From a virus (Duplodnaviria; Heunggongvirae; Uroviricota; Caudoviricetes), in the IMG/VR virus record IMGVR_UViG_3300028413_000003, positions 40,465 through 104,464 of that record: a stretch of 64,000 nucleotides of DNA; one strand, 5' to 3'. The position numbers were made by a program, and so were the translations under genes. This document shows, in pieces, positions 2,056-41,213 of this stretch; positions within the stretch are counted from its first letter, which is position 1, and every line of letters begins with the position of its first letter. The notes under the pieces were generated by a model. That model had not been told where the DNA came from and made no database searches. It was given only the letters and a program-made list of their open reading frames with translations.

Positions 2056-4194
2056 ATGATTATTAACTCAGCGCCAGCAGACAAGGCAGTCTTTGGCGGA
2101 ATCACTAAGGTTAGTGAATTCAAGATCAAAAATAGCGCAAAGGCATTTGGTATTCTGTCAAGTGGTTTGTATGCAAACAAAATTCGAGCAATCATCCGAG
2201 AACTTAGCTGCAACGCAGTCGACAGTCATGTTGCAGCTGGAAAGCGCAACACACCATTTGATTTGCACTTACCGACAAGGCTCCAGCCGTACTTTGCAAT
2301 TCGCGATTATGGTATTGGCTTGAACCTCGATGATGTTACACACATCTACACCACTTACTTCGAAAGCACCAAAGCCGACAGTAATGACTTTATCGGCGCA
2401 CTAGGTCTTGGATCAAAGTCGCCATTTAGCTACACTGACAGCTTCACCGTTATTGCTATTAAAGACGGCGTCAAGGGCATTTTTAGTGCTTTTATCAACG
2501 ACGACGGTGTTCCGAGTGTTGCTGAGATGGGTGTGGAGAAAACAGACGAGCCGTCTGGTGTTGAAGTAAAATTTGCAGTAACTGACGCTGATGATTTCTG
2601 GCGCTTTAGTACAGAAGCCAAGTCTGTGTTTACATATTTCGATCTTGTGCCAAATCTAACCGGCACCGAAATAGAGTTTAACACGGTTGAATATGAAGGC
2701 AAATGTATTGTTGCCAACGTGTTTTCGCGTAATAGCCAGATGGCCTACGCCAAGTCTACTAACAATGCAATCATGGGCAACATTGCCTATCCGATTGAAA
2801 TTCCAAGCAGTGACCGAAAATTAGGTGACTTGAATTTTGTCAGCAACACTGGACTTGATATCAAATTTGAATTAGGCGAAATTGAATTCCAGGCAAGCCG
2901 AGAAGGACTTCAGTACACTGAATGCACTATTACTAAAATCAAAGCAAAATACAAAGAAATTGCTGATGCATTAGAAGTAACACTGATTGCGGAAATGAAA
3001 TCAATTGAAAACACGTGGGACCGAGTACAATTTTTGAGGAACAAGGCAAAAAACCAATTATGGAGCGGAGTGGTCCAGCACTATATTGACAACAACAAGA
3101 TTCCGTTCTTATTCGGAAATAGATACTATTACAACTCATCCATAAAATTAAATGTAGAAGACATTGCCAAAAAATTCAATGTTGTGTTGCGATCATTCTC
3201 AACAGCCAAAGGGTCTTACGCCAGCGGCGGACTGAGCAAAATTGCAACCGAGAAGAAGGCCGGGTATGGGGGTCTTTGGTTAGTGGAATGCTGCAAAGAT
3301 GTGTTGTTTATTAAAAACACCGACAATGCTCGCATGTGGGAACGCAGCAAATATCATGTCAAAATTGCTTATGAGAAAGGCAAGACGGCATTTGTAATTT
3401 TTGCAAAGAATGCAGACAAGCCAGTTGATGTTGCAGGGTTTTTGGCTGCCATTCACAATCCTCCGGAAAATCAGGTCATTGACGTTACTGATTTAACAAA
3501 GCCTGATACAGTTTCAAGAATGTCAGAAAAGATCACACTGCTTAAAATAGACACATGCCATTACAATAATTCCATGACGTGGAGCGAATGCACAATGTCT
3601 CCAGGAGACATGGATAATACTAAAATCTATTGCTATGTCCCTATTACAGGATTCAAAGGAATTTCTAAGGCAGGCAAAGACATCAATGTTAAGAATGTTT
3701 ACCGTGCCATGAAAGCAAGCGGTCATCCAAAACTGTCAACTGTTGCAATGTATGGGGTACGCAAGACTGATGTCGCCGCAGTAGAAGCTTTGCCTAATTG
3801 GGTGAGATATGAGGACCTTGTAGAAGAAGTACTGGGCGAACTTAAATCCGAAAATTTACTTAGCATGGTGCTTTCACGGGTTGACAAAGATAGAGAATCA
3901 ATCTATTATAATAAGAAGCTTGTTAACATGTTGGACGAAAAAAGTCCAATGCGAGCGTTTTGCAAAAAGCTTCCTGAAGTTCCTGTAGGAGGCGACCGCA
4001 GCTTGTTTGAGCTTTCAAACACAATCGAAAGCTCACTTAACTTAACACTGTTAGAAGAAACAGCGACCAAAGAAATCGAGGGGATCCGCAGTCGTTACTC
4101 AATGATACAACAAATGCAGCGCAGTAGGTACTACGACGAGACTATTGTTGCAGAATATATTAACCTCGTCGATCAACATAAAGGACTAACATAA
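2056..4194 (+). CDS. rIIA: rIIA-like protein with GHKL (Bergerat-fold) ATPase domain
   Basis: N-box IRELSCNAVDS, G1 box DYGIGL, G2 box GALGLGSKS; 712 aa (T4 rIIA 725 aa); immediately upstream of an unambiguous rIIB homologue. Confidence 0.8.
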   Translation: MIINSAPADKAVFGGITKVSEFKIKNSAKAFGILSSGLYANKIRAIIRELSCNAVDSHVAAGKRNTPFDLHLPTRLQPYFAIRDYGIGLNLDDVTHIYTTYFESTKADSNDFIGALGLGSKSPFSYTDSFTVIAIKDGVKGIFSAFINDDGVPSVAEMGVEKTDEPSGVEVKFAVTDADDFWRFSTEAKSVFTYFDLVPNLTGTEIEFNTVEYEGKCIVANVFSRNSQMAYAKSTNNAIMGNIAYPIEIPSSDRKLGDLNFVSNTGLDIKFELGEIEFQASREGLQYTECTITKIKAKYKEIADALEVTLIAEMKSIENTWDRVQFLRNKAKNQLWSGVVQHYIDNNKIPFLFGNRYYYNSSIKLNVEDIAKKFNVVLRSFSTAKGSYASGGLSKIATEKKAGYGGLWLVECCKDVLFIKNTDNARMWERSKYHVKIAYEKGKTAFVIFAKNADKPVDVAGFLAAIHNPPENQVIDVTDLTKPDTVSRMSEKITLLKIDTCHYNNSMTWSECTMSPGDMDNTKIYCYVPITGFKGISKAGKDINVKNVYRAMKASGHPKLSTVAMYGVRKTDVAAVEALPNWVRYEDLVEEVLGELKSENLLSMVLSRVDKDRESIYYNKKLVNMLDEKSPMRAFCKKLPEVPVGGDRSLFELSNTIESSLNLTLLEETATKEIEGIRSRYSMIQQMQRSRYYDETIVAEYINLVDQHKGLT

Positions 4195-6694: not shown

Positions 6695-7207
6695 ATGGCA
6701 ACTTGTTATGTATTAGTTGGCGCGCCAGCAGTAGGAAAAAGCACTCGCGTAAAACAGATGGTCGAAATGGACCGCGATGCATATGTGTACAGCACAGATG
6801 CCGAACTTGAACTGATTGCACTCGCTTTGGGTAAAACCTACAACGATGTGTTCGAGTCTCAATATAAAAATGCTGTGAAAATTGCAGAAGAAGGATTGGT
6901 GTTTGCTCTCCAAGACAAACATGATGTGATCTGGGATCAAACCAACATGGGTGTTAACAAGCGAGCCGTTATTGTTGAACGTATGAAAAAGAATGCATAC
7001 GATATAATTTGTGAATGCTATTTGCATCCATCCGTGGCGGACGTTGACGACTGGGCCAATTGGCAGAATCGTCTTGTCAGCAGGCCAGGTAAAACAATTC
7101 CTGGATTTGTTATTGCAAACATGACCAAGAGCTTTGTGATGCCCGACTTTACTGAAGGGTTTGATGATATTCGAATATTTGATATGTACGGCGATGCGTT
7201 GCTGTAA
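6695..7207 (+). CDS. polynucleotide 5'-kinase domain protein (T4 Pnk kinase-domain-like, no fused phosphatase)
   Basis: Walker A GAPAVGKST; WDQTNMGVNKRAVIVERMKKNAY resembles T4 Pnk [23 protein letters not shown]; 170 aa, kinase domain only. Confidence 0.6.
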   Translation: MATCYVLVGAPAVGKSTRVKQMVEMDRDAYVYSTDAELELIALALGKTYNDVFESQYKNAVKIAEEGLVFALQDKHDVIWDQTNMGVNKRAVIVERMKKNAYDIICECYLHPSVADVDDWANWQNRLVSRPGKTIPGFVIANMTKSFVMPDFTEGFDDIRIFDMYGDALL

Positions 7208-7253: not shown

Positions 7254-7294
7254 AAATTATGCACCGAGTAGTGCTAGAGTTTAATGGAGGCAAC

Positions 7295-7948
7295 ATGTCT
7301 TACAAATTTCCCGAGATACGCACTATCAACGATGTACTTCCGCATATCAAAGGATGTGACGAGTTTATTGTTGCAGAGCGCGACGGCTTTACTGTAATTA
7401 ACTATGCCGTGTCCATGCCAGACACCTTTCCACCAATTGCAGTTGCAGGCGGCAGCGCAAAGATGCGTGAAGAACGCAGCCTGTCCAGCAGGATCAAGCG
7501 CGAATGCCGCGGATTGATATTTGGTGAAGACGGAGAACTTATGTCTCGTCCGTTCCACAAGTTTTTTAACATCAACGAGCGTGAAGAAACACTGTCAAAA
7601 AACATCGACATGACACGTCCGCACACTGTTATGGAAAAAATGGACGGGTGTCTTGATGAAGATAGTATTATTGCAACACCTGATGGTGGCAAAACTATAA
7701 AATTTTTATGTGAAACTAACTATAATGGACTTGTATTAGGGCAGAATTTAAAAAAGCAGATAATGTGGACACCTGTATTGGCATCGGCTATTAAAACCCA
7801 ATGTGATGATTGGTATGAAATAGAATTGACTAATGGGCATATCCTAAAACTTACTGGAAATCACAAAATTTGGTGCACCGATATAAGCGATTATATACGG
7901 GCAGATGAGCTCACTGGGGAAGAAGACCTTCTATTTTTTGAAGAATAA
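7295..7948 (+). CDS. rnlA: RNA ligase 1 N-terminal extein (118 aa) fused in frame to split-intein N-half (99 aa)
   Basis: ECRGLIFGEDGELMSRPFHKFFNINE and TVMEKMDG match T4 Rnl1 ECRGIMFEMDGE...SRPMEKFFNLNE and ILTKEDG (KxDG motif); Cys 7649 begins intein block A CLDEDSIIATPDG, block B GHILKLTGNHKIW; ORF ends at TAA 7946. Confidence 0.8.
   Translation: MSYKFPEIRTINDVLPHIKGCDEFIVAERDGFTVINYAVSMPDTFPPIAVAGGSAKMREERSLSSRIKRECRGLIFGEDGELMSRPFHKFFNINEREETLSKNIDMTRPHTVMEKMDGCLDEDSIIATPDGGKTIKFLCETNYNGLVLGQNLKKQIMWTPVLASAIKTQCDDWYEIELTNGHILKLTGNHKIWCTDISDYIRADELTGEEDLLFFEE
7649..7945 (+). mobile_element. split intein N-terminal half (Int-N, Hint blocks A and B)
   Basis: Cys1 directly after KMDG; TxxH motif; no endonuclease domain; terminates about 100 aa in. 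Confidence 0.75.
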
Positions 7949-8927
7949 GTTGGGGTAGATCAGTACAGTTATTAATTTCATATTCCCATATTTCAATAAC
8001 TGTAAATCCTTTCTTTTCGGCAAGTAATTGTTTCTTTTTATCATTTTCCCAAATATCAGATACTGGTTTATTTTTATTACCTGGATGAGTTACAACGTCT
8101 CCTTCGTTATAAAATATTGGGTTAGCATGCCAGAAATCACCTTGACATTCAATCAATATAGTGCCTATCTTGAAGTCAAATTGTCTATTCCCAATAAAAT
8201 ATGAAAATATATACGATATTCCTAATGAAGCTAGCGCCTCGGCAATTACCGACTCAATAGAATTCATTTTGCCAGAATATTGGTTAAGCCCAGATCTTTT
8301 ACAAGCATTATATTTTTCTGAATCTGTTAAATTAGCCCACCACTTTTTACGGCCAGCACTAATCTTATCACCAAGCGCAGCTCTGTACTCATTAGACCAG
8401 TTTGCTTTTGTTTCTTTCTGCTTCTCAATATTTGTTCTTCGTAGTGTTCCATATTTGGCAAGCATAGTAATATTAATTTTATCCTTTATTTCTTGCGCCG
8501 ATCTGACATTGTCGACCTCATATTTACGTTTTACAGTATCATTTCGTTTATGATATGCAATTGTATCTTTGGAAAGAGCATTTATTGTGCCGTATTTTTC
8601 AAGACAAGTTTTTTTGTATTTTTCTTGAGTTCGTTTTGATCTCGTGGTAGTCTTCTTAGGAATACCTAAGTAATATATAATCTTATATAACGTACTACTT
8701 GATAACCGTTGTATGTTAAAATGATCTAATAAATCCTTAATTGAAAAATCCTGAACAACATACATATTTATTAGGTCATTTTTAAAATCTGACTTGCTTG
8801 TGTTAGAATTATAGCATATAAGATTTATTAAATGTTCCGGTTTGGATAAGCCGTTAGCGCATGTATAAAAATGACTGAACTTTTCTTCTATTTTATCTTC
8901 ACAAACATAACATTTCATAGTTGACAT
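7911..8927 (-). CDS. free-standing homing endonuclease, Vsr-like PD-(D/E)XK fold (EDxHD-type, I-Bth0305I-like), with N-terminal zinc finger
   Basis: 338-aa minus-strand ORF between intein halves; ILIECQGDFWHANP and GFTVIEIWEYE resemble Vsr FIDGCFWHGH / WRVLTVWE; N-terminal CYVCEDK...CANG. Confidence 0.6.
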   Translation of the reverse strand: MSTMKCYVCEDKIEEKFSHFYTCANGLSKPEHLINLICYNSNTSKSDFKNDLINMYVVQDFSIKDLLDHFNIQRLSSSTLYKIIYYLGIPKKTTTRSKRTQEKYKKTCLEKYGTINALSKDTIAYHKRNDTVKRKYEVDNVRSAQEIKDKINITMLAKYGTLRRTNIEKQKETKANWSNEYRAALGDKISAGRKKWWANLTDSEKYNACKRSGLNQYSGKMNSIESVIAEALASLGISYIFSYFIGNRQFDFKIGTILIECQGDFWHANPIFYNEGDVVTHPGNKNKPVSDIWENDKKKQLLAEKKGFTVIEIWEYEINNCTDLPQLILQKIEGLLPQ

Positions 8928-8995
8928 CCTTTATTTCTTCGTGTATGGTATTTATATAAAAACTAGACAAACACCTACTTTGTAAAGGAAAATTT

Positions 8996-9097
8996 GTGAA
9001 AATTGCAAATATTAAAAAAATTAGAAACAATTCTCTCCGATATGACATCCAGACATCTACTAATAATTTTTTTGCTAATAACATTCTTGTGCATAAC
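8996..9097 (+). mobile_element. split intein C-terminal half (Int-C, blocks F and G)
   Basis: GTG start with RBS aaaggaaaa; RYDIQTSTNNFFANNILVHN followed by Ser+1; same reading frame as Int-N ORF. Confidence 0.75.
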
Positions 9098-9928
9098 TCA
9101 ATGATTAGACCATTGATCATTAATGGCGTTGTCCGTCTTGCTACTAAGATGGGGGTAACTGATGTGAGCGAGCAAGCCGAAAGGTACATGCGTACTCGTT
9201 CTAACTACCAAGCAGAAATGCATTGGTTAGAAAAAGCTGTAAAAATGGGAGTTACTCCATTGTTTGAGTTTGTAGCGCCCGATAACCAGATTGTGCTAGG
9301 ATATCGATCTGCTGACCTTGTGCTGCTGGCAATCCGTCATAATCTAACTGGCAACTACTTGGGTCGCCAGAATTCAACACCGGACTCAATTACACAAGTT
9401 GTGTTACATGACTCGGTTGATGGTACGCTGGATGACTACGTTGCCAAGCACCGCAACGACGAAGGTCGTGAAGGGTTTATCATCAGCTTCAACGGCGAGA
9501 TGTACAAAGGCAAGAACGACTGGTATGTGCGTATCCATAAAACACTGGATCGTGTGCGGTTCGATCGTAACATTGTTGCATTGATTGTCAACGAGGATCT
9601 CGACGATGTGATCGGCCAGTTGCCACAAGTAGATGCAGATCGTATCCGCGATTTCGAAGTTCGATTCTGGGATGCGTTTGGTCGCACCGAAGATCGTGTC
9701 AAGGCACTTTATGAAAAAGCTGTAAAATATCCAGATCGTAAGTCGGTTGCTACAAAGTTTATTCCTAAGTTGCAAAACAAGACCGACGCCAGCTTTGTGT
9801 TTCGCTTGCTGGATGGCGACGACATGCGCGAGATGTTATTGCATTATGTATCAAAGCACATCAACACAAATGTACAATGGAAAGCTTGTGCTAAATGGAT
9901 GGAGGTTGCTGATGCTGTCGTGGTTTAA
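8996..9928 (+). CDS. rnlA: split-intein C-half (34 aa) fused to RNA ligase 1 C-terminal extein (about 276 aa)
   Basis: After HN|S the sequence LEKAVKMGVTPLFEFVAPDNQIVLGY matches T4 Rnl1 [26 protein letters not shown]; extein total about 394 aa versus T4 374 aa. Confidence 0.8.
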   Translation: MKIANIKKIRNNSLRYDIQTSTNNFFANNILVHNSMIRPLIINGVVRLATKMGVTDVSEQAERYMRTRSNYQAEMHWLEKAVKMGVTPLFEFVAPDNQIVLGYRSADLVLLAIRHNLTGNYLGRQNSTPDSITQVVLHDSVDGTLDDYVAKHRNDEGREGFIISFNGEMYKGKNDWYVRIHKTLDRVRFDRNIVALIVNEDLDDVIGQLPQVDADRIRDFEVRFWDAFGRTEDRVKALYEKAVKYPDRKSVATKFIPKLQNKTDASFVFRLLDGDDMREMLLHYVSKHINTNVQWKACAKWMEVADAVVV

Positions 9929-10651
9929 ATCTTGGTTTACCGAGCCTGAACCCAACAGGCCGTTTGTTGTATATATACGACAGCATAAAGTTGCTCAATC
10001 AACCACAAGAGAAGAAGCAGAAAAGTACATTCAAGAGATTTTTGAAAAGTCAGACAGTAGCTTTTTAGGAGGATCAGGATGGGGGACTCGTCAGGGTGTT
10101 AGCCAAAAACGCAGACGTAACGCATTTCGAGGACAATGCAAAATCGTTGAAATGTGCAACCTGTGTAACCGAAGGGTTGGCCATTGTGGACAGTGTTGAT
10201 TATCACCTAACTCCTCTTCCTGGATATTGAGAAATTGTGTTTGCAAAATATAATAATGATAAGTATACACGCAAGTTCTATCATTTGTTAGAAAGCGAAG
10301 GATTTGATTTGACGTGGGAACAAAGGCGAACGAATTACAATTTAAAATTAGTGTCGCATAAAAAGAAATCAATTATGACAATATTTTGCTTAAAATACTC
10401 CGGTACATTAGCGTTGTGTGACATCTTAGTAAGAGAATACACACCCAACACCAGAGGTGCAACAATGTACCAGAAGAGATCATTATGGAACTAATTGCAT
10501 TTGTTATTGTTGTTGCAGGCTATGTAATAGCAGACGCGATAATGTTTGTAAACGGTTATCGCAGCCTTTTTTGGAAAGCTCGAACAAAACAAGAGAAAGC
10601 GGTGCGCCGTGCATTTTTTGACAAATTAAACATCGAATGGGATGAAAAACA

Positions 10652-11047
10652 ATGATACGTGATTATGTTGTAACAATAGCAGAACTTTTATTCTACTTAA
10701 TGGACGGAATACCGTTGCTTGACTCGCCATGGTTACTAGTGTATCTAGGAGCTGGCGTGCTGATTATGCTATGGCCAATTTTAATTTTGGATCGCGTAGG
10801 ACGATACGCCAGGATTGCATGCATAGTTGGGATAATTACATTCTTTCCTGTGCTGTTTCTTACAATGTCACCGGCCTTGGCGCAGCAACAGATGATGAGT
10901 GAGTGTAGCACAGTTCAGGTTGTAGTTTCGTCAGAACGTGCAGGAGTTTCTACTTTCGACGCAAGAGAGTGCCGCCGCAAGTCAAACTTCTATGAAGACC
11001 ACGGACCATGGAAGGTTGTTACACTAACCCGTCGAGTAGCAGAATAA
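10652..11047 (+). CDS. hypothetical membrane protein
   Basis: 131-aa ORF with 3 hydrophobic segments. Confidence 0.4.
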   Translation: MIRDYVVTIAELLFYLMDGIPLLDSPWLLVYLGAGVLIMLWPILILDRVGRYARIACIVGIITFFPVLFLTMSPALAQQQMMSECSTVQVVVSSERAGVSTFDARECRRKSNFYEDHGPWKVVTLTRRVAE

Positions 11048-11331
11048 TGGCAACTGTAGAGATGAAGCTGGACCGGAGAATGGCAGACTGTCCGAGTGCA
11101 TGGGTCGGCTTTGTTCACTGGTGCCAGAAGGATTTGGTTTGGACAGGCATCGAATCCTTGCTGCAAGAGGTTGACACACTCGAAGACCAGTTGTTTCTTT
11201 TCAATCAAGGTTTGTCGTATTACGATGCTTCGATGTCAACAGTAGAAAGTGGGGTTGTTATATTTCAAGATCCTAAAAAGTATTCGTTGTTTGTATTAAC
11301 ATTTAGCGGCTATCATGCCAATAAGAATTGA
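11047..11331 (+). CDS. small paralog-family protein A (C-terminal Y-x-L-F-V-L motif)
   Basis: DCPSAWVGFVHW N-motif and ...KKYSLFVLTF C-motif shared with 5 other ORFs; start taken at ATG 11047. Confidence 0.5.
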   Translation: MATVEMKLDRRMADCPSAWVGFVHWCQKDLVWTGIESLLQEVDTLEDQLFLFNQGLSYYDASMSTVESGVVIFQDPKKYSLFVLTFSGYHANKN

Positions 11332-11560
11332 CCTAGGCAGGCGGTTTTCTGATTGCCCAATACATTGGCGATCCTTTATTAGAAAATTAGAAGAAGAGAT
11401 ACCCGAGCAACAGCATCGCAGAGGCGGCGGATTTTCTACTAAAACTATTAACAAGCAACTAACCATGTATCATGCAACTTTCTTTCAGAAAGGCCAACGT
11501 TACCTAGTTGACTTTTCTGACGAAGCACGCTATAACTTGTTTGTACTCAAGTATGGATAA
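11315..11560 (+). CDS. small paralog-family protein B
   Basis: DCPIHWRSFIRKL and C-terminal RYNLFVLKYG. Confidence 0.5.
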   Translation: MPIRIDLGRRFSDCPIHWRSFIRKLEEEIPEQQHRRGGGFSTKTINKQLTMYHATFFQKGQRYLVDFSDEARYNLFVLKYG

Positions 11561-11566
11561 CACACT

Positions 11567-11917
11567 ATGTCACTGGATAAAATAATCAACGTAGCTCTTG
11601 ACGCAACCATCGAAGGTGAAGCTGACAATGCATTTCGTTTGGCTCGCAAGCGTTACGCCAATGGCGAACGACTACTTACTATCAACAACAATGTCAAACC
11701 ATCTGCAAGAGAACAGCGCATGGTTAAGGAAAGAAATATGCAGCAAGGACTAATAGACTTAATGGACTTAACCATTGAACAACTCGACGAAAAAGTTGCG
11801 TACCATAAAAGAAGAGCACAAAAGGCGTTTACTCAATGTAGAATTTGGCAGATTACAGCAATTGCACTAGGATCGACAGCAGCTGGTGCAATTGCTGTAT
11901 TACTGATTGTATTATAG
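11567..11917 (+). CDS. hypothetical tail-anchored membrane protein
   Basis: 116 aa; C-terminal TM ITAIALGSTAAGAIAVLLIVL. Confidence 0.5.
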   Translation: MSLDKIINVALDATIEGEADNAFRLARKRYANGERLLTINNNVKPSAREQRMVKERNMQQGLIDLMDLTIEQLDEKVAYHKRRAQKAFTQCRIWQITAIALGSTAAGAIAVLLIVL

Positions 11918-12177
11918 TGATCTTTAGAATTGCACCATATTTGCCCAACACGCCAGATGGATGGAGAAAACTTATTAACAGTCTAGGCTTTTTAAGTAAT
12001 CGTTACTCGTCGAGTTCGAGCAAAACTAATAGAGATAAAGTAATTGAAATTGAAAATGAATTTCTAAAATACAATGCAATTTACATTAACTGCGGCGAAG
12101 ACAATTTTAGTACTGTTGAGTTTGTTGATGAAAAACATTATACACTGTTTGTATTAAAATTTGGAGTACTAGAATGA
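11845..12177 (+). CDS. small paralog-family protein C (start may be GTG 11917 overlapping upstream TAG)
   Basis: PDGWRKLINSL and C-terminal HYTLFVLKFGVLE. Confidence 0.5.
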   Translation: MADYSNCTRIDSSWCNCCITDCIIVIFRIAPYLPNTPDGWRKLINSLGFLSNRYSSSSSKTNRDKVIEIENEFLKYNAIYINCGEDNFSTVEFVDEKHYTLFVLKFGVLE

Positions 12178-12536
12178 ACTGGACACTGTTTTTAGACGAC
12201 ATACGTTTTCCAGACGATGTGCGCTATGATTACGGACCTTACAAAGAGTTAGTAATCTGCCGCAGCATGGACGACGCAGTGTGGGCAGTTAAACAATACG
12301 GCCTGCCCACATTTGTCAGCTTTGATCACGATTTGGCTGACATACATTACACCACAGACAACGGCGAAAAAACAGGAATGAGTTTCGCCAAGTGGATCTG
12401 CAACTACATCATGGACAACAACGCAGTATATGATCCAAACTTTGCCTGGCATGTACACAGTGCCAATCCTGTTGGAGCAGCAAACATTGAATCTTTCATG
12501 ACAGAATTTAACAAACATTGGAGAACTATACTATGA
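12174..12536 (+). CDS. hypothetical protein, possible receiver-like (cREC-type) domain
   Basis: LFLDDIRFP ... FVSFDHDLA pattern; 120 aa; low-confidence family assignment. Confidence 0.4.
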   Translation: MNWTLFLDDIRFPDDVRYDYGPYKELVICRSMDDAVWAVKQYGLPTFVSFDHDLADIHYTTDNGEKTGMSFAKWICNYIMDNNAVYDPNFAWHVHSANPVGAANIESFMTEFNKHWRTIL

Positions 12537-16191: not shown

Positions 16192-16235
16192 ACAGATCAA
16201 CAAATTACATTTTTGAGGATTAAATATGGATAATA
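16192..16235. repeat. 44-bp perfect direct repeat, copy 1 (contains start codon of MORN-repeat gene)
   Basis: acagatcaacaaattacatttttgaggattaaatatggataata identical to 16532-16575. Confidence 0.9.
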
Positions 16236-16573
16236 ACCCAGTAATCAATGCAAGTGGCGATAAGCTTTGGTATGAGAATGGTGAACTACATAGAACCAAT
16301 GGACCAGCAATTGAATACACAGATGGTGATAAGCATTGGTATGTGAATGACCAACTGCACAGAACCGATGGACCAGCAGTTGAAAACACAGATGGTGCAA
16401 CGCAGTGGTATGAGAATGGTGAACTACATAGAACCAATGGACCAGCAGTTGAAAACACAGATGGTGCAAAGTTTTGGTATTTAGAGGGCATGCAATGCAG
16501 CTTTGATGAGTGGTGCAAAAGATCCACTCTCACAGATCAACAAATTACATTTTTGAGGATTAAATATGGATAA
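16226..16573 (+). CDS. MORN-repeat-variant protein (4 x 23-aa WYxNGxLHRTxGPA repeats)
   Basis: Internal 69-bp DNA periodicity; repeat units 1 and 3 nearly identical; gene starts in repeat copy 1 and ends in copy 2. Confidence 0.6.
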   Translation: MDNNPVINASGDKLWYENGELHRTNGPAIEYTDGDKHWYVNDQLHRTDGPAVENTDGATQWYENGELHRTNGPAVENTDGAKFWYLEGMQCSFDEWCKRSTLTDQQITFLRIKYG

Positions 16574-16667: not shown

Positions 16668-17933
16668 ATGGAAAGACATTTAGTAGGCGCCCCGGTACGA
16701 GATATGCGGCTGGGGCGTACTGTCGAAGACCGAGATTGGGTAGTAGTTGGTTCTACACCCGAGCAAATGCTAGCTGACGGTTTTGGACAAGTTGGTGCTG
16801 ATTTTCCTGTATTTTTGCATCCTGAGACCAATGAAGAATATGCACTTGCACGTCGCGAACATAAAACTGGCGAAGGTTACTTGGGATTCACCAGCGATTT
16901 TGGTACAGATGTTACACTGTTGGAAGACTTGGGCCAACGAGACTTAACTGTCAACAGCATGGCCATGCAGAAACTGACCGAAAGTGAATTTGCAATAGAC
17001 ACTGACACCAACGACAATTGGGCGTTCTTTGATCCATATGGTGGCTTGGAAGATTTAGAAGCAAAAGTCCTTCGGCACACCAGTGATGCATTTGCCGAAG
17101 ATCCTGTACGAGTATTGCGTCTGGCGAGATTTCGCGCCAGACTAGGTCCTGAGTGGACAGTTGCACCCGAAACAGTTGCAATGGTTTCAAAAATGGCCAA
17201 GTCCGGTGTTCTTAATGAACTAGTAAGTGAGCGTGTATGGAAAGAAACAAGAAGAGCACTAATGGAGCCTCATGCGCGCCTGTTTTTTGACACACTGTTG
17301 GAAACGGATGCCTTGCATGTGATTTTTCCCGAAGTGTACAAGCTAAAGACTGCACTAGAGGCGCGGCGATGGCACCCCGAAGGCGATGCGTACGAGCACA
17401 CAATGTTGGTACTAACTGCCGCAGTTGATTTTGGCTACGACCTAGAAACGCGATTTGCTGCACTGGTACACGACTTTGGCAAAGGTCTAACGCCTAGAGC
17501 AGCACTGCCCAAGCACTACGGCCATGAAGTCACAGGTGTTGCTGTTGTAGAAAGCTTTGCCAATAGGCTGTCTGTGCCTTCTAATATGCGCAACCGTGCG
17601 ATGAAGACCACAAGATTTCACATGCACATGCACAAGTTAGACTCGTTGAATCCAAAAACGTTTGTAAAAATGTTTACAGAAATGGATGCTTGGAGAAATC
17701 CAGAAGTTGTAGACTTGCTGCTAAGAGTAGGCGAGTGCGACGAACGCGGCAGACTAGGCTGTGAAAATGTAGATGTACAACATTTGCAGAAACTAAAGAA
17801 AGTATTTGATCAAGCTAAAAGAGTTAAGTTTGCTGAGGTATTTTCCAAAGGTGAAACCGATGGCGAAAAGATCAAGGGTGGCATGTATCGTGCTAGAATA
17901 CAAGTTGTTTCGGAGATTAACAAAGATGACTAA
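16668..17933 (+). CDS. cca: tRNA nucleotidyltransferase (CCA-adding enzyme) with HD domain
   Basis: N-terminal LVGAPVRDMRLGRTVEDRDWVVVG (pol-beta NTase head) and HD motif ALVHDFGKG; 421 aa. Confidence 0.85.
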   Translation: MERHLVGAPVRDMRLGRTVEDRDWVVVGSTPEQMLADGFGQVGADFPVFLHPETNEEYALARREHKTGEGYLGFTSDFGTDVTLLEDLGQRDLTVNSMAMQKLTESEFAIDTDTNDNWAFFDPYGGLEDLEAKVLRHTSDAFAEDPVRVLRLARFRARLGPEWTVAPETVAMVSKMAKSGVLNELVSERVWKETRRALMEPHARLFFDTLLETDALHVIFPEVYKLKTALEARRWHPEGDAYEHTMLVLTAAVDFGYDLETRFAALVHDFGKGLTPRAALPKHYGHEVTGVAVVESFANRLSVPSNMRNRAMKTTRFHMHMHKLDSLNPKTFVKMFTEMDAWRNPEVVDLLLRVGECDERGRLGCENVDVQHLQKLKKVFDQAKRVKFAEVFSKGETDGEKIKGGMYRARIQVVSEINKDD

Positions 17934-20407: not shown

Positions 20408-20818
20408 ATGAACCCGGTAAAATACATCAAATATAAATTACTTGAGTGGAAGTGGGAAAACATACTTTCCAAGAGCGGGCACCCTTCTTGGGAGTACTAC
20501 TTGTGTATCAATGATCCTGGTTTACATTTTAGTACACGTGATGACATGTTAACGCCCGCTCAAGCCATGCCCGGCTATCCATATAGAGTACAGATACTTG
20601 CCAAGGATGTTCCAATGGAATGTCAAGGAATGTGGGGAGTTGGACGAAGTTCTGCTAAGTATACAAATTGGTGTAGTAGAAATTGCAAAGGACAGTTCCA
20701 GGAACGCTGGCTGCATCACACAGTTGATCACCAATCACAATATGTAGACAACATGGATTTGATAATGGGGTTTAAAAATGAAAGAGACTTTATTATGTTT
20801 AGTTTGAGTTGTGTGTAA
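20408..20818 (+). CDS. hypothetical Trp/Cys-rich protein
   Basis: 136-aa ORF. Confidence 0.45.
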   Translation: MNPVKYIKYKLLEWKWENILSKSGHPSWEYYLCINDPGLHFSTRDDMLTPAQAMPGYPYRVQILAKDVPMECQGMWGVGRSSAKYTNWCSRNCKGQFQERWLHHTVDHQSQYVDNMDLIMGFKNERDFIMFSLSCV

Positions 20819-21211
20819 ATGACAGATATCAAAGAATATTACAGAGTACTCCTTCCAGTGATCAGACGTGTTATGCATAGTGTTATTGCACATAATATAG
20901 TTGGTGTTCAGCCAATGACTGGCCCTATAGGTCAAATTTTTAATATGAAACACACGTATAAGGATTTAATAATGGAAAAGAAACACTATCAGCACTTTTT
21001 ACGTTTGCCCAACAGACGCAAACAGCAGAAAATTGCTGAAATTTCTAAAGTATACGATTATACCTGTATTCAATCTGATCCAACAAAAGTACGAGAGGCC
21101 AAGGCGTGGTGTAAGAAAAACCTTAAAGAAGGTTCGTGGGTTAACCTTCATAGTAGGTTTGTATTTGCATATGACAAAGATGCAACATGGTTTGCAATGG
21201 CGGCAATATAA
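20819..21211 (+). CDS. hypothetical protein
   Basis: 130-aa ORF. Confidence 0.45.
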   Translation: MTDIKEYYRVLLPVIRRVMHSVIAHNIVGVQPMTGPIGQIFNMKHTYKDLIMEKKHYQHFLRLPNRRKQQKIAEISKVYDYTCIQSDPTKVREAKAWCKKNLKEGSWVNLHSRFVFAYDKDATWFAMAAI

Positions 21212-21507
21212 TGTTCAGTGTTGAAATAAATAATTTAGTCCTTGAGTTTCACCGTGCCCACAATCATGTGCTCGATAAACTAGGAGGCAAAGATGCTGTT
21301 ATACAACGAAGAAATCACTGGGGAGCACTAGCAACTGGGTGGAGTACATATATCCATGCTGTACCAGCAGGCAAAATTAATCCACTTATAGCAAACCGAC
21401 CGCTGAAGCGACGAGGTGCGAGCGTCCTCAAGTCAGAGCAATGGACTCATTTGTGGTTCATGCAAGAAAAAGATTATACGCTCTTCTTGTTGAAGTGGTT
21501 GAACTAA
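21187..21507 (+). CDS. small paralog-family protein D
   Basis: C-terminal KDYTLFLLKWLN. Confidence 0.5.
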   Translation: MVCNGGNIMFSVEINNLVLEFHRAHNHVLDKLGGKDAVIQRRNHWGALATGWSTYIHAVPAGKINPLIANRPLKRRGASVLKSEQWTHLWFMQEKDYTLFLLKWLN

Positions 21508-21782
21508 TGATAGTAAAATACGGATATTGGCCCGAAAGCGAGCAACCACAGGAACAAGAAGAAGACGTATGGGTAATGGTTACCGAACCTGAACAACATT
21601 ATGTGCATATTTTTTACGAGGATGCAAGTGATGTAAATCTTATTAAAAAAGTATACGAAACGTGTGATAAACATCGCGAGATTTATATAGTTCGCCGCGG
21701 GCAAGGCTGTATTGTTTATTTCAGTACTGTTGGTTCGCTGAAATGGTTTGAATTTATGCATGGACTAAACGCATGGATGTGA
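21507..21782 (+). CDS. hypothetical protein (start at ATG 21507 overlapping upstream TAA as TAATG)
   Basis: In-frame ATG within track ORF 21441..21782. Confidence 0.4.
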   Translation: MIVKYGYWPESEQPQEQEEDVWVMVTEPEQHYVHIFYEDASDVNLIKKVYETCDKHREIYIVRRGQGCIVYFSTVGSLKWFEFMHGLNAWM

Positions 21783-22012
21783 CCACAAAAACTATAACAT
21801 TAGATCGCGGCAGTAAAATTGATAAAAAACTCTGGCAGATGTATGTGGATATTGACTACGGTAAATTAATGCCAAGCAAACTGTATAAAGGATATAAAAC
21901 GTACATTGCAGATATGTCCGGCGCAGACGTTACTGGCACTAAAAAAGATGGATTTGAACTTACATTTAACACGCAAAAATCATATACATGGTTTTTGTTG
22001 AAGTACAGTTAA
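21773..22012 (+). CDS. small paralog-family protein E
   Basis: C-terminal KSYTWFLLKYS. Confidence 0.5.
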   Translation: MDVTTKTITLDRGSKIDKKLWQMYVDIDYGKLMPSKLYKGYKTYIADMSGADVTGTKKDGFELTFNTQKSYTWFLLKYS

Positions 22013-22285
22013 ATGTCTATTAAAACTGAAACTATATTCCCTACTGAAATGCTAAACAAGGTGTATAGAAAGTGGTTAGTTGACAGCGGTAGCTCACTTT
22101 CTACAAGTAAATTTGCATCACGCCGAAGTTACAATTCGTACCGTTACGGGTTTAATGAGCAACTATTTGAAAATTGGCTATTTTTAAACGGATTTGATGT
22201 TATTCAAGAAAACAAACAACGATACTTGCGATTCTCTGGCGATCAACGCAGCCTTACACTATTTCTACTAAAGCACGTAGATTAA
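22013..22285 (+). CDS. small paralog-family protein F
   Basis: C-terminal RSLTLFLLKHVD. Confidence 0.5.
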   Translation: MSIKTETIFPTEMLNKVYRKWLVDSGSSLSTSKFASRRSYNSYRYGFNEQLFENWLFLNGFDVIQENKQRYLRFSGDQRSLTLFLLKHVD

Positions 22286-22290
22286 AAATG

Positions 22291-22319
22291 TTGACACCCT
22301 ATGAGGTCCGTGCTATAAT
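22291..22319 (+). promoter_or_regulatory. sigma70-like promoter TTGACA-N17-TATAAT (perfect -10)
   Basis: Lies just inside the 5' end of track ORF 22288..23109, so that gene probably starts at ATG 22354. Confidence 0.5.
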
Positions 22320-35938: not shown

Positions 35939-36013
35939 TCTCCCCGGCGCGCAAGGTGTGCGAGCTGACTGTTAATCAGTTGTAGTCTGGTTCGATTCCA
36001 GAGGGGAGAGCCA
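35939..36013 (+). tRNA. tRNA-Asn (anticodon GUU)
   Basis: Manual cloverleaf: acceptor TCTCCCC/GGGGAGA, loop CTGTTAA, T-loop TTCGATT, CCA encoded. Confidence 0.75.
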
Positions 36014-36352
36014 AATAACAAGAGCTTTGCAATGTATGACTTTCCTATATGGTTGTATTTGACCGCGACAATTTACCGAATAGTTGGTAATAGTGGCTAT
36101 ACATAAAAGTCTCAATCGAGACGTTGGATTGCAAATTCAATAACGGTACTAGATTAGTCGTTATCTAGTTAAATCGCCTGCTATGGTTGAGCCCACCACT
36201 TAGATAAGAGATTCATTGCAAAGTCCACTAAGGCTGTAAATACGAATCCGCTAAGTTAAACTATTGTTTGTTCCCCAAGGGTAGCAAACGCAAGCAGGTG
36301 TGCAAACACGGCAGTCTCATTGCGTAGCAACGGTGACACCTGCTATAAATAA

Positions 36353-36442
36353 GGACAGGTGCCTGAGAGGCCGAAAGGAACGGTTTGCTAAATCGTCGTA
36401 CCGGAAACGGTACCCAGGGTTCGAATCCCTGTCTGTCTGCCA
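36353..36442 (+). tRNA. tRNA-Ser (anticodon GCU), type II long variable arm
   Basis: Anticodon loop TTGCTAA, variable arm CGTACCGGAAACGGTAC, T-loop TTCGAAT, CCA encoded. Confidence 0.8.
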
Positions 36443-36529
36443 TAAATTAAAAGTTATTATGGGCCCACACACCAAACTGGTGCAACAGGTAGGTCCTTTA
36501 GAAGTATAGTAATATACATCCACTAATAC

Positions 36530-36605
36530 GGGGGATTAGCTCATCTGGGAGAGCGCTACATTTGCAATGTAGAGGTGGTCGGGTCGGGACCGACATTCTC
36601 CACCA
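36530..36605 (+). tRNA. tRNA-Ala (anticodon UGC)
   Basis: G3:U70 pair present, loop TTTGCAA, CCA encoded. Confidence 0.8.
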
Positions 36606-36921
36606 ACAACGTTAGATTTGTGCCATGTAAACATAGTTGATGCCACAACAACTTAAGATACTGCATTGGACTGCCGGATAGACACCCCTTCTCGGGTTGC
36701 TCTGGCAGACACCACTTTATGCCTAACATAAGATACTCTCACTAAAGGATGCATACATTGCCTTGGTGAGGAAAGGAAGGTTATGCCCTTCCTGAGAGAT
36801 TAGGGGTTAGCTTAGTTGGGGTATTTAATAATCCTAACGATGCTGCTATAGCAAATAACTGTTTAAGAAAAACAATATACAATTGAGTCAACAGTAACAA
36901 AGTTTTTAACTATCTAAAAAT

Positions 36922-36996
36922 AGTTCGGTAGCTCAAAGGAAGAGCGTTGGTGTTACATACCAAAGGTTGAGATTTCAAAATTCTCTCGGACTACCA
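36922..36996 (+). tRNA. tRNA-Val (anticodon UAC)
   Basis: Acceptor AGTTCGG/TCGGACT, loop GTTACAT, T-loop TTCAAAA (one T-stem mismatch), CCA encoded. Confidence 0.65.
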
Positions 36997-37426
36997 GATC
37001 CCCTACCAGACACAGTGCGCTTGAGATGCCTCACTGTTTAAACATCAGAAGCATTCCGCGTAGCGCAGTACAGCCAGATTGTAAAGATCAAGTAGTACAC
37101 GATAGGCAGCGGCTATCAAAATATTAGAGTTAGGTGTTTAGTCTACGCACTAAACACCCAAGTGGTGGGAAAGAATAGGCGTCAATTGCTAGGCATAGAC
37201 GTGATAAAGTTTGCTTTTAACATATAATGTTTTAAGCATTGGGTCCTATTCAAACAGAATATCCTAGCTTGATTACAGGCGACAACTTGTAATCAAGTGA
37301 CACAACATAGTTCATTGCGTTGTCGCGCAGAAAGCACGCTTGGCTCACACCCAAGAAGATCGGAAATTGGATGACCGAGCTGCGTTCGGCGCAGTGTAGT
37401 GTAAATGTTGGATTGTAATTTTATAT

Positions 37427-37502
37427 GCGGGCGTAGCTCAGTGGTAGTAGCGTTAGTTTTCCAAACTAAATGTCGTCGGTTCGATCCCGATCGCCCGCTC
37501 CA
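37427..37502 (+). tRNA. tRNA-Gly (anticodon UCC)
   Basis: Acceptor GCGGGCG/CGCCCGC, loop TTTCCAA, CCA encoded. Confidence 0.8.
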
Positions 37503-37910
37503 AATAACCCGACCGTATGTGATTTATTATCAAGCAATAAATTATTCACTACGGCGTTACAGTGATCCGTGTGAGGCAATGTATATAATGCAAGGACTCC
37601 GTGATCAATCACTGTTTGAACATCACTTGTCTGAGACTGCAAAGATTGGACCACCTAAGCCGTAAGGTAAACCTGGAACGATAGTATATGGTGTCCAGCA
37701 AGTGTGTATTATTTTTGGTATCCACCGTGGCGTCAAATGTTATGACATAGGGCAGGTGGACGAAGAGACAGCATGTTAGACTGCCAAAATTAACATAGGC
37801 ATACGGGATAGCAAAGAGTAAGAAAGCGACGCATTGCATGAGCGATGTTTGTCACCTCGGAATCCATGGGGACCGCAAGGATACACTTACCGCCTAGCTT
37901 TAATAATAAC

Positions 37911-37987
37911 GCCGTTGTAGCTCAGTCCGGTAGAGCAGTTCCCTTGTAAGGAAAAGGTCGAGGGTTCAAATCCTTCCTGCGGCACCA
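37911..37987 (+). tRNA. tRNA-Thr (anticodon UGU)
   Basis: D-arm GCTCAGTCCGGTAGAGC, loop CTTGTAA, T-loop TTCAAAT, CCA encoded; one acceptor mismatch. Confidence 0.65.
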
Positions 37988-37993
37988 GATTAT

Positions 37994-38087
37994 GCACGGA
38001 GATATAGGCAATTGGAAGCCTTGAATCCATAAGAGGCAGCGGGTGATCCTTTACTGCCAAATGCAAGTTCGAATCTTGCCCTGTGCT
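37994..38087 (+). tRNA. tRNA-like element, anticodon arm unresolved
   Basis: Canonical T-arm GCAAG-TTCGAAT-CTTGC and acceptor GCACGGA/CCTGTGC (6 of 7 bp), but 94 nt long with a 5-bp stem closing a 14-nt loop. Confidence 0.3.
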
Positions 38088-38237
38088 CCTAATTACAGCA
38101 AGTTAAGCTAAAGGTGAAGCAGGCCGCGGAAGGGGCTGATCAAGTGATATTAGTAAGTGGGGATATTAGCTATAAGTCCATTGAAAATGCAATCATTTAT
38201 ATACGGATCGTTACCGTAGCTTGCTACTTACAAGAGG

Positions 38238-38266
38238 TTGACAACACTGTGCAGAAATGCTAGTAT
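38238..38266 (+). promoter_or_regulatory. sigma70-like promoter TTGACA-N17-TAGTAT
   Basis: Upstream of ORF 38294. Confidence 0.5.
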
Positions 38267-38293
38267 AAGTTAACAACAACAAAGAGGCTTACA

Positions 38294-38608
38294 ATGAATA
38301 CGGTTAGTATTAACGGCGTTACATACACTTCAAAAACTGGAGACGTGTCGGTAACGAGAGATGTAATTACAATCAACGGTGAAGAAATTCACGCAACTGG
38401 AATTGTAGAGATACGAGTACTAGAAGGTGTTATTAATAATTTAACATCCAGTGCATCTGTTAATTGCACAACAGTCAACGGCGACATTAAAGCCAGCGGT
38501 AGTGTTAGAAGTGATGATGTCGGCGGCAATGTTAAAGCTGGTGGAAGTGTTAGATGTGACAACGTCGGCGGTTCGGTCAAAGCTGGTGGCAGTGTACGTC
38601 ACTCATGA
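38294..38608 (+). CDS. bactofilin-like repeat protein
   Basis: Repeats GDIKASGSVRSDDVGGNVKAGGSVRCDNVGGSVKAGGSVR. Confidence 0.4.
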   Translation: MNTVSINGVTYTSKTGDVSVTRDVITINGEEIHATGIVEIRVLEGVINNLTSSASVNCTTVNGDIKASGSVRSDDVGGNVKAGGSVRCDNVGGSVKAGGSVRHS

Positions 38609-38615
38609 AGAATAT

Positions 38616-38690
38616 GTCGCGTTAGCAAAATGGTAATGCGCTGCCCTGCAAAGGTAGAAGTTGGTGGTTCGATTCCTCAACGCGACTCCA
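38616..38690 (+). tRNA. tRNA-Cys (anticodon GCA)
   Basis: Acceptor GTCGCGT/ACGCGAC, loop CTGCAAA, CCA encoded; weak T-stem. Confidence 0.65.
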
Positions 38691-38819
38691 AAATACGCAA
38701 GGCTAAGCAGCTGGTGCACCTGTCTGCTTTAAACCTTTGCCAGCTTCGGGTAGGAATGGGATTAATGCGTATCCATTATCCCCGAAGCGACTATAAACAA
38801 CAAACTAGGTAGGCACACT

Positions 38820-39206
38820 ATGAACAGCACAGAACATTGTAAAAGTTTTATTGCAACTATTATCAAAGATAATCCTAGCATTGTCCTTTCGATTTACGGC
38901 ATCGTTTTTGAAGCTGAATTTCTTAGTAAGTTGGTCACGGATGCAACAGCACCTAACAAATGGAAACGTGAATATAAATGCAAGCCTGGTGGCGGGTTAC
39001 AAGCGTTTGATGAATATTCTATGTTTAGCAAAGACGTTACAATTTCCAGAATGGGATATGATAGAATGCCAAAACGAGATGTATCTGACTTTATATCCGA
39101 GAGAGGGTTCTGCCTTGCACCAGACACATACGAAGACAGTGTTGCATTTGTAGTGTTAGAAGATCATAATGGTATCCTTCACTTAGGTGATTACATAGGA
39201 GACTAA
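38820..39206 (+). CDS. hypothetical protein
   Basis: 128-aa ORF within tRNA island. Confidence 0.45.
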   Translation: MNSTEHCKSFIATIIKDNPSIVLSIYGIVFEAEFLSKLVTDATAPNKWKREYKCKPGGGLQAFDEYSMFSKDVTISRMGYDRMPKRDVSDFISERGFCLAPDTYEDSVAFVVLEDHNGILHLGDYIGD

Positions 39207-39431
39207 AAAGAATTTGTATAGTGTAGACGGTCATGCGTGAATTCGCAAAGCACACTCCGTAGGCAATTGCAGCGGGAAGCCCAGACTTTATGAGAACCTG
39301 GTACAAATAGTAAATGTAGTGGCTGTTAACGCCACGGAATGACTGCCGGTCTATATTGGACTATAGCAGCAATCCTATTGTTAACAGCTACTACTTTTAA
39401 TTTAACTCTAACCCAATCAAAAAGGCGCTCA

Positions 39432-39617
39432 ATGAAAATCAAATACAATCAACTTGCTGACTTAATGGACTACATTGACACACAGTCTGATCATATTAAT
39501 GATGCTGCTATGACTAAATTAGAGGGACGCCTAGGCAAAAAAGAAGTCAAGCGCATGCGTAGGCTATATAAGAAAATGTCTGACAAGCTCGACGACGCGC
39601 AATACACTATTAATTAA
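39432..39617 (+). CDS. hypothetical small protein, paralog of 39658..39990
   Basis: MKIKYNQLADLMDYID...GKKEVKRMRRLYKKM versus MKIKRKELRDMLNHIN...GKKQVKRINKMLKKM. Confidence 0.4.
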   Translation: MKIKYNQLADLMDYIDTQSDHINDAAMTKLEGRLGKKEVKRMRRLYKKMSDKLDDAQYTIN

Positions 39618-39657
39618 AATACGGTATCAACTTTTAACTGTAACTCAAGAGGCTATT

Positions 39658-39990
39658 ATGAAAATCAAACGCAAAGAACTTCGAGACATGCTGAATCACA
39701 TCAATGATCAAGATGTCTATATCACTGATGATCATCGGTGCGAGATGGAAGAAGAAATGGGTAAAAAACAAGTCAAACGTATCAACAAGATGCTCAAAAA
39801 AATGGGCAAGAAGTTGACTTCAACACCAACAATTGTATTCATGTCTGCATCAGGCAACAGATACCTTATTAATGCTGCCACATATGAAGCAGATGTAGCA
39901 GCATATCAAGCCGCGCTCGATGCAGGTGATGAAATCACAATGGACGCTTTTGAAACAGGTAGCACAGGCTGGATTTGCGCTCCTGAATAA
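39658..39990 (+). CDS. hypothetical small protein, paralog of 39432..39617
   Basis: See paralog. Confidence 0.45.
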   Translation: MKIKRKELRDMLNHINDQDVYITDDHRCEMEEEMGKKQVKRINKMLKKMGKKLTSTPTIVFMSASGNRYLINAATYEADVAAYQAALDAGDEITMDAFETGSTGWICAPE

Positions 39991-40092
39991 TTTGCGGTAG
40001 TACGAATGCTACATTAAAAAAATCTCAATATGAATTGAGGTTCTAGAGATACAGTAAAACGAGTCTTGTTTAAATAGAAAGTATTTGAATAT

Positions 40093-40177
40093 GCGGGCGT
40101 GGTGGAATTGGCAGACACATCACGTTTAGGTCGTGACACCGCAAGGTTTGGGAGTTCGAGTCTCCCCGCCCGTACCA
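40093..40177 (+). tRNA. tRNA-Leu (anticodon UAG), type II
   Basis: Acceptor GCGGGCG, loop TTTAGGT, long variable arm, T-loop TTCGAGT, CCA encoded. Confidence 0.75.
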
Positions 40178-40199
40178 AATACAATACGCGCCGCGTGGT

Positions 40200-40454
40200 A
40201 TGAAGTTTACTACACATAAATATAAGTACCATCAACAAGGAGACGGTATTATGAATTTTTTAAAAGGTTACAGAACAGTTATTTTCAACATAGCATTATT
40301 TGTTGCAAGCTTGGTCGAAATTGTTGGAATAGTTGATATACTTGCGCCTGGCGCAAGCGCAAGTATTATTCTAGCAGTAAGCATTGCTAACTTGGTGCTG
40401 AGATATATGACAGACACAACAGTTGGCACAAGTACGCAACACGAAACATTATAA
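40200..40454 (+). CDS. hypothetical small membrane protein
   Basis: 84 aa; two hydrophobic helices. Confidence 0.4.
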   Translation: MKFTTHKYKYHQQGDGIMNFLKGYRTVIFNIALFVASLVEIVGIVDILAPGASASIILAVSIANLVLRYMTDTTVGTSTQHETL

Positions 40455-40460
40455 GAACAT

Positions 40461-40535
40461 TGGAGGACGTAGCAGAATGGCGATGCATCAGACTTTGAAT
40501 CTGATTTTTGGGAGGTTCGATTCCTTCTCCTCCAG
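40461..40535 (+). tRNA. tRNA-Gln (anticodon UUG), copy 1
   Basis: Acceptor TGGAGGA/TCCTCCA, stem TCAGA/TCTGA, loop CTTTGAA; 3' CCA not fully encoded. Confidence 0.6.
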
Positions 40536-40661
40536 CCCTAGAATTCCTTAGCTAGTCAAGGAAAGAACATTTAATCGGTGCAGCAAGCTTTTACTCCTAC
40601 CGAAGAGCAGTATCTTAAAGATATACGGACTGCCTTGTGTTGTGGAATTTTATAAGAATAT

Positions 40662-40737
40662 TGGTCAGTAGCTCAATTGGTAGAGCATCTGTTTTTGGTA
40701 CAGAAGGTTGTAGGTTCGAATCCTACCCGACCATCCA
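40662..40737 (+). tRNA. tRNA-Gln (anticodon UUG), copy 2
   Basis: D-arm GCTCAATTGGTAGAGC, stem TCTGT/ACAGA, loop TTTTGGT, CCA encoded. Confidence 0.55.
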
Positions 40738-41106: not shown

Positions 41107-41110
41107 CTTG

Positions 41111-41139: not shown

Positions 41140-41213
41140 CAATGTATAAAACAGTTTTAGGTGCCGAAGCTATTAATAACGGAGTATGGCGCAGTTCGCT
41201 AACTTCAAATATA

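Follow-up and report, generated by a model that had tools for sequence, protein, structure and literature searches.

A previously undescribed family of small paralogous proteins encoded in two gene clusters of an uncultured T4-like phage

AsiA, Arn, Dmd and Stp are small early T4 proteins that act in host takeover or anti-defence as stand-alone, non-enzymatic factors encoded in early variable regions, and the early gene arrays of T4-like phages are the usual place of genes of this kind. Host-takeover and anti-defence functions can be considered to reside mainly in such small early genes, the majority of which have no assigned function. To our knowledge none of these four proteins forms a family of six or seven copies. 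Here we analyze a 64,000-nucleotide stretch, called the window from here on (positions 40,465 to 104,464 of the IMG/VR virus record IMGVR_UViG_3300028413_000003, a tailed phage of the Caudoviricetes). It includes six small genes, named A to F, organized in two clusters and coding for paralogous proteins that appear to have no place in any described family. The likeness to AsiA, Arn, Dmd and Stp is that of small stand-alone proteins of an early region and serves as a working comparison only; the family shares no sequence or fold similarity with them, and PDB searches that included such proteins gave nothing. Three other known systems come close in some respects: T4 Cef in map position, the type I KH domain in the order of its predicted structural elements, and the cREC systems in the gene that follows the first cluster. 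cREC proteins are predicted to process cyclic phosphates (2′,3′-cyclic ends) and are linked to RNA ligases (Iyer et al. 2021, PMC7824862).

The six genes are listed below with the isoelectric point (pI) of each product and the expectation value (E) obtained with a profile built from homologues outside of the window.

11047-11331, plus strand: A, 94 amino acids (89 from the alternative start at 11062), acidic, pI 4.7, E 6.5e-16
11315-11560, plus strand: B, 81 amino acids, pI 9.7, E 1e-23
11917-12177, plus strand: C, 86 amino acids from a GTG start, pI 5.8, E 1.2e-17
21211-21507, plus strand: D, 98 amino acids (106 if the start is at 21187), pI 9.9, E 1.3e-7
21773-22012, plus strand: E, 79 amino acids, pI 9.3, E 8.9e-8
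22013-22285, plus strand: F, 90 amino acids, pI 9.6, E 1.3e-7

Taken together, the sequence comparisons indicate that these open reading frames (ORFs) form a genuine paralogous family, as the initial annotation had proposed from their shared motifs, and that they are coding and under purifying selection. The C-terminal pattern [YL][TSN][LW]F[VL]L[KT][YFWH] has six matches across the six reading frames of the window, always on the plus strand and 1 to 8 residues from the stop codon, while 300 codon-block shuffles yielded a mean of 0.01 matches. When each member in turn was left out of the hidden Markov model (HMM), it came first among the 1145 six-frame segments searched (E 4.7e-6 to 9e-3), and no non-member segment fell below E 0.18. 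The profile made from non-window homologues alone recovered all six as full-length matches (E 1e-23 to 1e-7), and no further member was found with it among the window ORFs below E 0.37. Gene callers predict the same ORFs on independent contigs. The ratio of nonsynonymous to synonymous differences per site (pN/pS), calculated between the window and a relative that is about 93% identical at the DNA level (loci L011 and L012), is 0.12 for A, 0.33 for B, 0.49 for D and 0.24 for F; E has only five substitutions, so its ratio is uninformative. The pooled value, about 0.33, lies inside the range of the neighboring genes (0.07-0.44) and argues against chance similarity of non-coding ORFs. The motif regions are unchanged between these two phages and the differences are found in the N-terminal part and the central loop. 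Among the paralogues themselves, which are 20-50% identical, synonymous sites are saturated. The F orthologue in L012 (7344-7616) carries an in-frame stop at the position of a Gln codon of the window, which could reflect pseudogenization, a variant in the assembly or read-through.

The family consensus can be written M..v.L....dCP..WqNFI..l (variable loop) G.s...iN.eL..YnA.Y.....vdF.dE..YTlFvLKYG, and B represents the canonical type (DCPxxW...YxA...F.DE..YNLFVLKYG). The C-terminal ending in K followed by Y, F, W or H, originally ascribed to all copies, is present in five of them; in A, T replaces K (YSLFVLTF) and eight extra residues follow, although the A orthologue in L011 has K. The coordinates first assigned to A, B, E and F were right and two starts call for revision. 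C most likely begins at GTG 11917 instead of TTG 11845, because this GTG overlaps the upstream stop codon (TAGTG), because bases 11845-11917 lie inside the gene at 11567-11917, and because the later position is where identical contigs have their predicted gene start and where the orthologues (MIFRI.../MIYKL...) begin. D may start at ATG 21211, which forms a TAATG overlap, instead of 21187.

An exhaustive profile search of 1.84 billion protein cluster representatives (cut-off E <= 1e-3), the kind of HMM search that the initial annotation had suggested, reached 113 metagenomic phage representatives. All of them are stand-alone proteins of 55-106 amino acids with no fused domain, and nearly all were matched across most of the profile. 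Those on longer contigs belong to other T4-like or large tailed phages and are encoded within small-gene arrays. A word-index search of 5.8 billion proteins returned only the same phage and close relatives, and tblastn of B, the representative P0017 and the family consensus against 50,697 GenBank phages gave nothing significant. As judged from these metagenomic representatives and from the GenBank phages without a match, the family appears to be confined to uncultured aquatic T4-like phages. No credible match to the family was found in Pfam, PHROGs, NCBIfam, PADLOC or the sequences of the PDB; one member matches the unannotated phrog_10163 (E 6.5e-4). The failure of the first reading to place the motif in a known family was therefore well founded, and by these searches the family is previously undescribed. 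The UniProt entries A0A6J5KWS6, A0A6J5L0I7 and A0A6J7WKP2, uncharacterised proteins of uncultured Caudovirales phages, have the same length, fold and motifs and belong to it. Neither they nor any of the 113 representatives carry a name, an annotation or an experiment, and what sets the window phage apart from them is its six or seven copies. T4 Cef was considered and rejected as kin: 2 of 114 members match T4_Cef (PF24050), with a best E of 0.0012 that does not reach the Pfam threshold, and hhalign of the family against T4 Cef gave a probability of 0.1%, so the match is spurious. What the two have in common is a small early T4-type protein and a broadly similar map position, T4 cef being a few kilobases from rIIA.

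The structure prediction suggested in the initial annotation gave a confident model without a solved counterpart. AlphaFold2 on B, using an alignment of 114 sequences, reached a predicted local distance difference test score (pLDDT) of 91 and a predicted template modelling score (pTM) of 0.79, with a strand at residues 3-8, a helix at 16-28, a loop of lower confidence, a helix at 42-52, a hairpin at 54-59 and 62-67, and a last helix at 70-80. The model of F, made from an alignment of D-, E- and F-type sequences only (pLDDT 82, pTM 0.72), has its elements in the same order. The fold is thus confidently predicted to be a three-stranded sheet packed on three helices, in the order beta-alpha-alpha-beta-beta-alpha. 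In the model the N-terminal (D-C-P)-x-x-W motif caps helix 1 and forms its beginning, the C-terminal F-x-D-E-x-x-Y-T-L-F-V-L-K-Y-G motif corresponds to strand 3 and helix 3, and the conserved residues, mostly hydrophobic, probably form the core. The loop that connects helices 1 and 2 has low confidence and variable length. Tandem duplications inside this loop are found independently in two B-type lineages, one in L011 (2757-3005), where 16 residues are repeated (EQLLSSDGGFSNKTIN, twice), and another in L073 (216-479), with 8 residues (SGGFEIDT, twice). Foldseek against BFVD matched only uncharacterised proteins of uncultured phages, over the full length (E 7.8e-4, template modelling (TM) score 0.70), and against the PDB no significant relative was found, the top matches being KH domains and PNPase (best E 0.28, TM about 0.4).

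The type I KH domain, as in PCBP1 KH1 and Nova-2 KH3, has the same size and, by DSSP on the B and F models, the same order of elements along the chain. On the other hand, the GxxG loop that lies between helices 1 and 2 of KH domains is not conserved in the family, in which a long helix 1 leads into a variable loop of 10-25 residues, and most members are acidic. A Gly-rich stretch at the position of the KH loop is seen in B only (RGGGF) and not in A, C, D, E or F, and B-type homologues have at most a G-hydrophobic-S/T sequence where helix 2 begins, close to the position of GxxG in KH domains. Membership in the KH class was rejected because the family does not conserve GxxG and its similarity scores fall short of significance (TM about 0.4 at E >= 0.28); there is also no match to a Pfam KH model.

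The copies have their own orthologues in other phages. When 108 external representatives were assigned to the closest window type, 79 fell to B, 12 to C, 7 to F, 5 to A, 3 to E and 2 to D, and individual orthologues include P0011 (43% identical to A) and P0096 (51% identical to E). In the phage of locus L020, whose proteins are 25-44% identical, a second cluster located about 7 kb downstream of the first is collinear with cluster 2 of the window, in the order orthologue of the 136-amino acid ORF at 20408-20818, D, a 134-amino acid gene, E and F; its D matches with an E of 6e-9 and its E is 41% identical. Since cluster 2 is orthologous and collinear in that phage, the duplications occurred before these phages diverged, and each copy has been maintained on its own. 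The comparisons thus point to old paralogues that are individually retained under purifying selection. Turnover, in the form of copy-number change and mosaic exchange, appears at the C-type position only. L011 is about 90-94% identical to the window on both sides of a replaced segment, which runs from the middle of the gene at 11567-11917 to the end of C and in which the upstream gene product is 40% identical and C 49%; where the window has one C-type copy L011 has three, which are 35-44% identical to each other. The initial annotation had taken the six diverged copies as a sign of selection for diversity. That view can be retained for the C-type turnover, and it disagrees with the age of the copies, their separate orthologues, the preserved order of cluster 2 and the pN/pS values of 0.12 to 0.49.

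The gene immediately downstream of C codes for a cREC protein.

12174-12536, plus strand: cREC_REC gene for a predicted receiver-like phosphoesterase of cyclic phosphates (Pfam PF20274, E 2.3e-20), whose start overlaps the stop of C (ATGA)

The three C-type copies of L011 also precede cREC, and in L020/21, L022 and L023-27 cREC lies 0 to about 900 bp downstream of a B-type member. A metagenome scan added 11 informative loci, all 11 with cREC downstream of B-type members, and two others too short to be judged. Nearly all B- and C-type loci examined have cREC downstream of the member. The members linked in this way are only 34-49% identical, several of these loci carry two or three of them in tandem, and the genes between member and cREC vary while the linkage persists. 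However, none of 32 IMG/VR cREC loci has a member beside cREC, and these include cRECs 63-73% identical to that of the window, as similar as those of the linked loci. The family was not found in cultured phages with cREC, and none was present in the first 14 kb of T4 or in the cREC regions of Aeromonas phage P19 and RaK2. Some member loci have no cREC nearby, with none within 10 kb in L014/L016 and none within 1.1 kb in L019, a probable exception, and cluster 2 of the window lies 9 kb from cREC. The linked loci are also collinear in the surrounding genes (c4, c3, member, cREC, c13...). The linkage is one-sided because cREC often occurs without family members, and it may reflect just inherited gene order; a functional tie of B- and C-type members to cREC is possible. 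The locus resembles the cREC-centred systems described for RNA ends and NAD+-derived nucleotides (Iyer et al. 2021, PMC7824862) in the position of B- or C-type genes directly upstream of cREC and in the RNA ligase, kinase and CCA-adding enzyme encoded in the region; it differs in that none of the partners described for cREC belongs to the family, which is missing from most cREC loci, and the function of cREC is itself only predicted.

With respect to function, we tentatively favor as a quite possible reading that the proteins are produced early in infection and serve as small binding modules without enzymatic activity. Each paralogue would combine the common core with a surface and a long variable helix 1-helix 2 loop of its own and so bind its own partner, which would be a host or a phage protein, as for AsiA, Arn or Dmd of T4; the cREC protein encoded downstream may be what B- and C-type copies target or work with. 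A binder is preferred to an enzyme because no polar residue is invariant (only columns of W, L, F and F are so, or nearly so), fusions are absent and charge is not conserved, because the loop is variable and has duplications, and because the genes are located in an early region. The pI values of the six range from 4.7 to 9.9; in the wider family the median is 5.7, 59% of the members fall below 6 and 25% exceed 8. Several considerations weigh against this proposal: the case for a binder is an argument from absence of evidence; the basic pI (9.3-9.9) of B, D, E and F, four of the six copies in the window, would suit nucleic-acid binding as well; the early timing is deduced from map position and one promoter-like match of a kind not enriched over shuffled sequence; and the strong linkage of B-type members to cREC points to a role more specific than generic host takeover. 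This last observation leads to the idea, doubtful in our opinion, that B- and C-type proteins are RNA-repair accessories, i.e., adaptor or regulatory subunits of cREC that would bind either cREC or damaged RNA ends and belong to a phage set for tRNA repair or counter-defence. The overlap of C with the cREC start, the three C-type copies before cREC in L011, the B-type-cREC order that is kept at low identity and with changing intervening genes, and the predicted activity of cREC on 2′,3′-cyclic ends and its link to RNA ligases (PMC7824862) are in agreement with it, as are the presence in the window of an AAA_33 kinase, an RNA ligase 1, a CCA-adding enzyme with an HD domain and 16 tRNAs, the type I KH order of elements and the weak top Foldseek matches to KH domains and PNPase. 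Nevertheless, the 32 IMG/VR loci and the cultured cREC phages, all devoid of a member, imply that cREC does not need the family; the whole neighborhood is syntenic, so adjacency may be inherited; cluster 2 at 9 kb and the L014/L016 and L019 members have no nearby cREC; most members are acidic; and there is neither a conserved GxxG nor a significant KH match. A related proposal, which we consider improbable, is that the family defines a new fold class of adaptor targeting RNA ends or enzymes, with B- and C-type members docking on cREC to steer tRNA repair to particular damaged tRNAs. If this were the case, the old paralogues would match different substrates or the different host nucleases that they counter.

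We give still less credit to nucleic-acid-binding regulators, KH-like or other small alpha/beta DNA or RNA binders that would control early gene expression or host mRNA. The beta-alpha-alpha-beta-beta-alpha order, the basic nature of B, D, E and F and the G-hydrophobic-S/T sequence frequent at the start of helix 2 in B-type members would be expected of them, but no member matches a Pfam KH model, A, C, D, E and F have no Gly-rich loop, and 59% of the wider family has a pI below 6. It is very unlikely that these are virion-internal proteins injected with the DNA. Such a role would make a related packaged protein of the product of a cluster 2 gene that has the N-terminal segment of gp23 and a faintly family-like C-terminus; this gene is absent from the syntenic L020 cluster and its membership is not supported, the family genes are in the early region far from the structural genes, and inspection, the only means used, recognized no capsid-targeting or cleavage signal in the members. 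Finally, an artefact, meaning chance similarity of non-coding ORFs, or a known domain such as T4 Cef would have the two weak PF24050 matches to its credit, and can be considered refuted by the hhalign result and the match statistics, together with the evidence of purifying selection, the existence of orthologues and the confidently predicted folds.

The finding alone settles no long-standing question, and multi-copy ORFan families are not unusual in the variable regions of T4-like phages. The family is, however, clearly delimited, with more than 100 sequence clusters, a confident fold without solved relatives, and, per genome, six or seven copies that diverged long ago and lie in two conserved clusters. 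It gives structural studies and screens for partners a concrete object, and may offer a handle on the role of cREC, the linkage to which is the most specific functional lead.

The window phage is T4-like, with rIIA at 2056-4194 (best GenBank relatives 30-42% identical), 16 tRNA genes between 35.9 and 47.3 kb and a G+C content of about 41%. Megablast of the region found no close relative among 50,697 GenBank phage records; identical or nearly identical contigs are present in several metagenomes of the Joint Genome Institute (JGI), the European Nucleotide Archive (ENA) and Logan, the largest contig with these proteins being 251 kb. The six genes sit in the rIIA region within the early, tightly packed arrays of small genes, all on the same strand and with overlapping stops and starts, and members elsewhere are also found in dense same-strand small-gene arrays near rIIA/rIIB. 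Other features of the two clusters are as follows.

10227-10254, plus strand: sigma-70-like promoter match, TTGAGA-16-TATAAT (11 of 12 positions), upstream of the array that includes cluster 1; a consensus match only
11567-11917, plus strand: non-member between B and C, 116 amino acids, with a C-terminal hydrophobic anchor
20408-20818, plus strand: ORF of 136 amino acids (g136), candidate longer member that shares at least the C-terminal strand-helix module
20819-21211, plus strand: ORF of 130 amino acids inside cluster 2, the first 90 residues or so matching the N-terminal part of gp23-type major capsid proteins
21504-21782, plus strand: ORF of 92 amino acids between D and E, with a C-terminus that looks family-like

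The ORF at 20408-20818 is probably a seventh, longer member of the family. Its L020 orthologue is 39% identical and terminates in FFGFKDERDYIMFTLRWG, its pN/pS is 0.23, and profile-profile comparison of its orthologues with the family gave a probability of 78% and an E of 1.8e-5, over the last 22 residues only. The next ORF, 20819-21211, matches Pfam Gp23 (E 7e-14) and a PHROG for the major head protein, is present in the close relative L012 and missing from the L020 cluster, and might serve as a decoy or packaging tag, or be a fragment of a gene. In spite of its family-like end, hhalign against the family gave a probability of 5% and membership is not supported, nor is it for the ORF at 21504-21782 (0.8-1.5%). 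A putative decayed member at 10237-10494 was also rejected, with matches never better than E 0.2.

In cluster 1 the order B, anchored protein of about 115 amino acids, C-type member recurs in the window, L011, L065 and L071, including a TARA ocean contig. A multi-pass membrane protein encoded upstream of A (10652-11047) is also conserved. The number of sigma-70-like matches in the region does not exceed that of shuffled sequences; a perfect consensus, TTGACA-17-TATAAT with an upstream TG, is found at 22291-22319, just past F and within the start of the next ORF.

The window includes a set of genes similar to those of RNA repair: the AAA_33 kinase at 6695-7207, the RNA ligase 1 at 7259-9928, cREC at 12174-12536, the CCA-adding enzyme with its HD domain at 16668-17933 and the 16 tRNAs at 35939-47274. 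The ligase gene is apparently fractured. The ORF at 7259-7948 consists of the N-terminal block of RnlA followed by the N-terminal part of a Hint/intein domain, a DUF7487 ORF is located on the minus strand at 7911-8927, and the ORF at 8996-9928 opens with a C-terminal intein splicing block, a layout that resembles split-intein arrangements with a free-standing gene in between. Two further genes complete the description: a 115-amino acid protein of MORN-like repeats is encoded at 16226-16573 (WYENGELHRTNGPA...), and in related phages a ribosomal protein L7/L12-like protein (PF00542) is encoded a few genes upstream of a family member (L020, 7567-7956; L022, 445-831).

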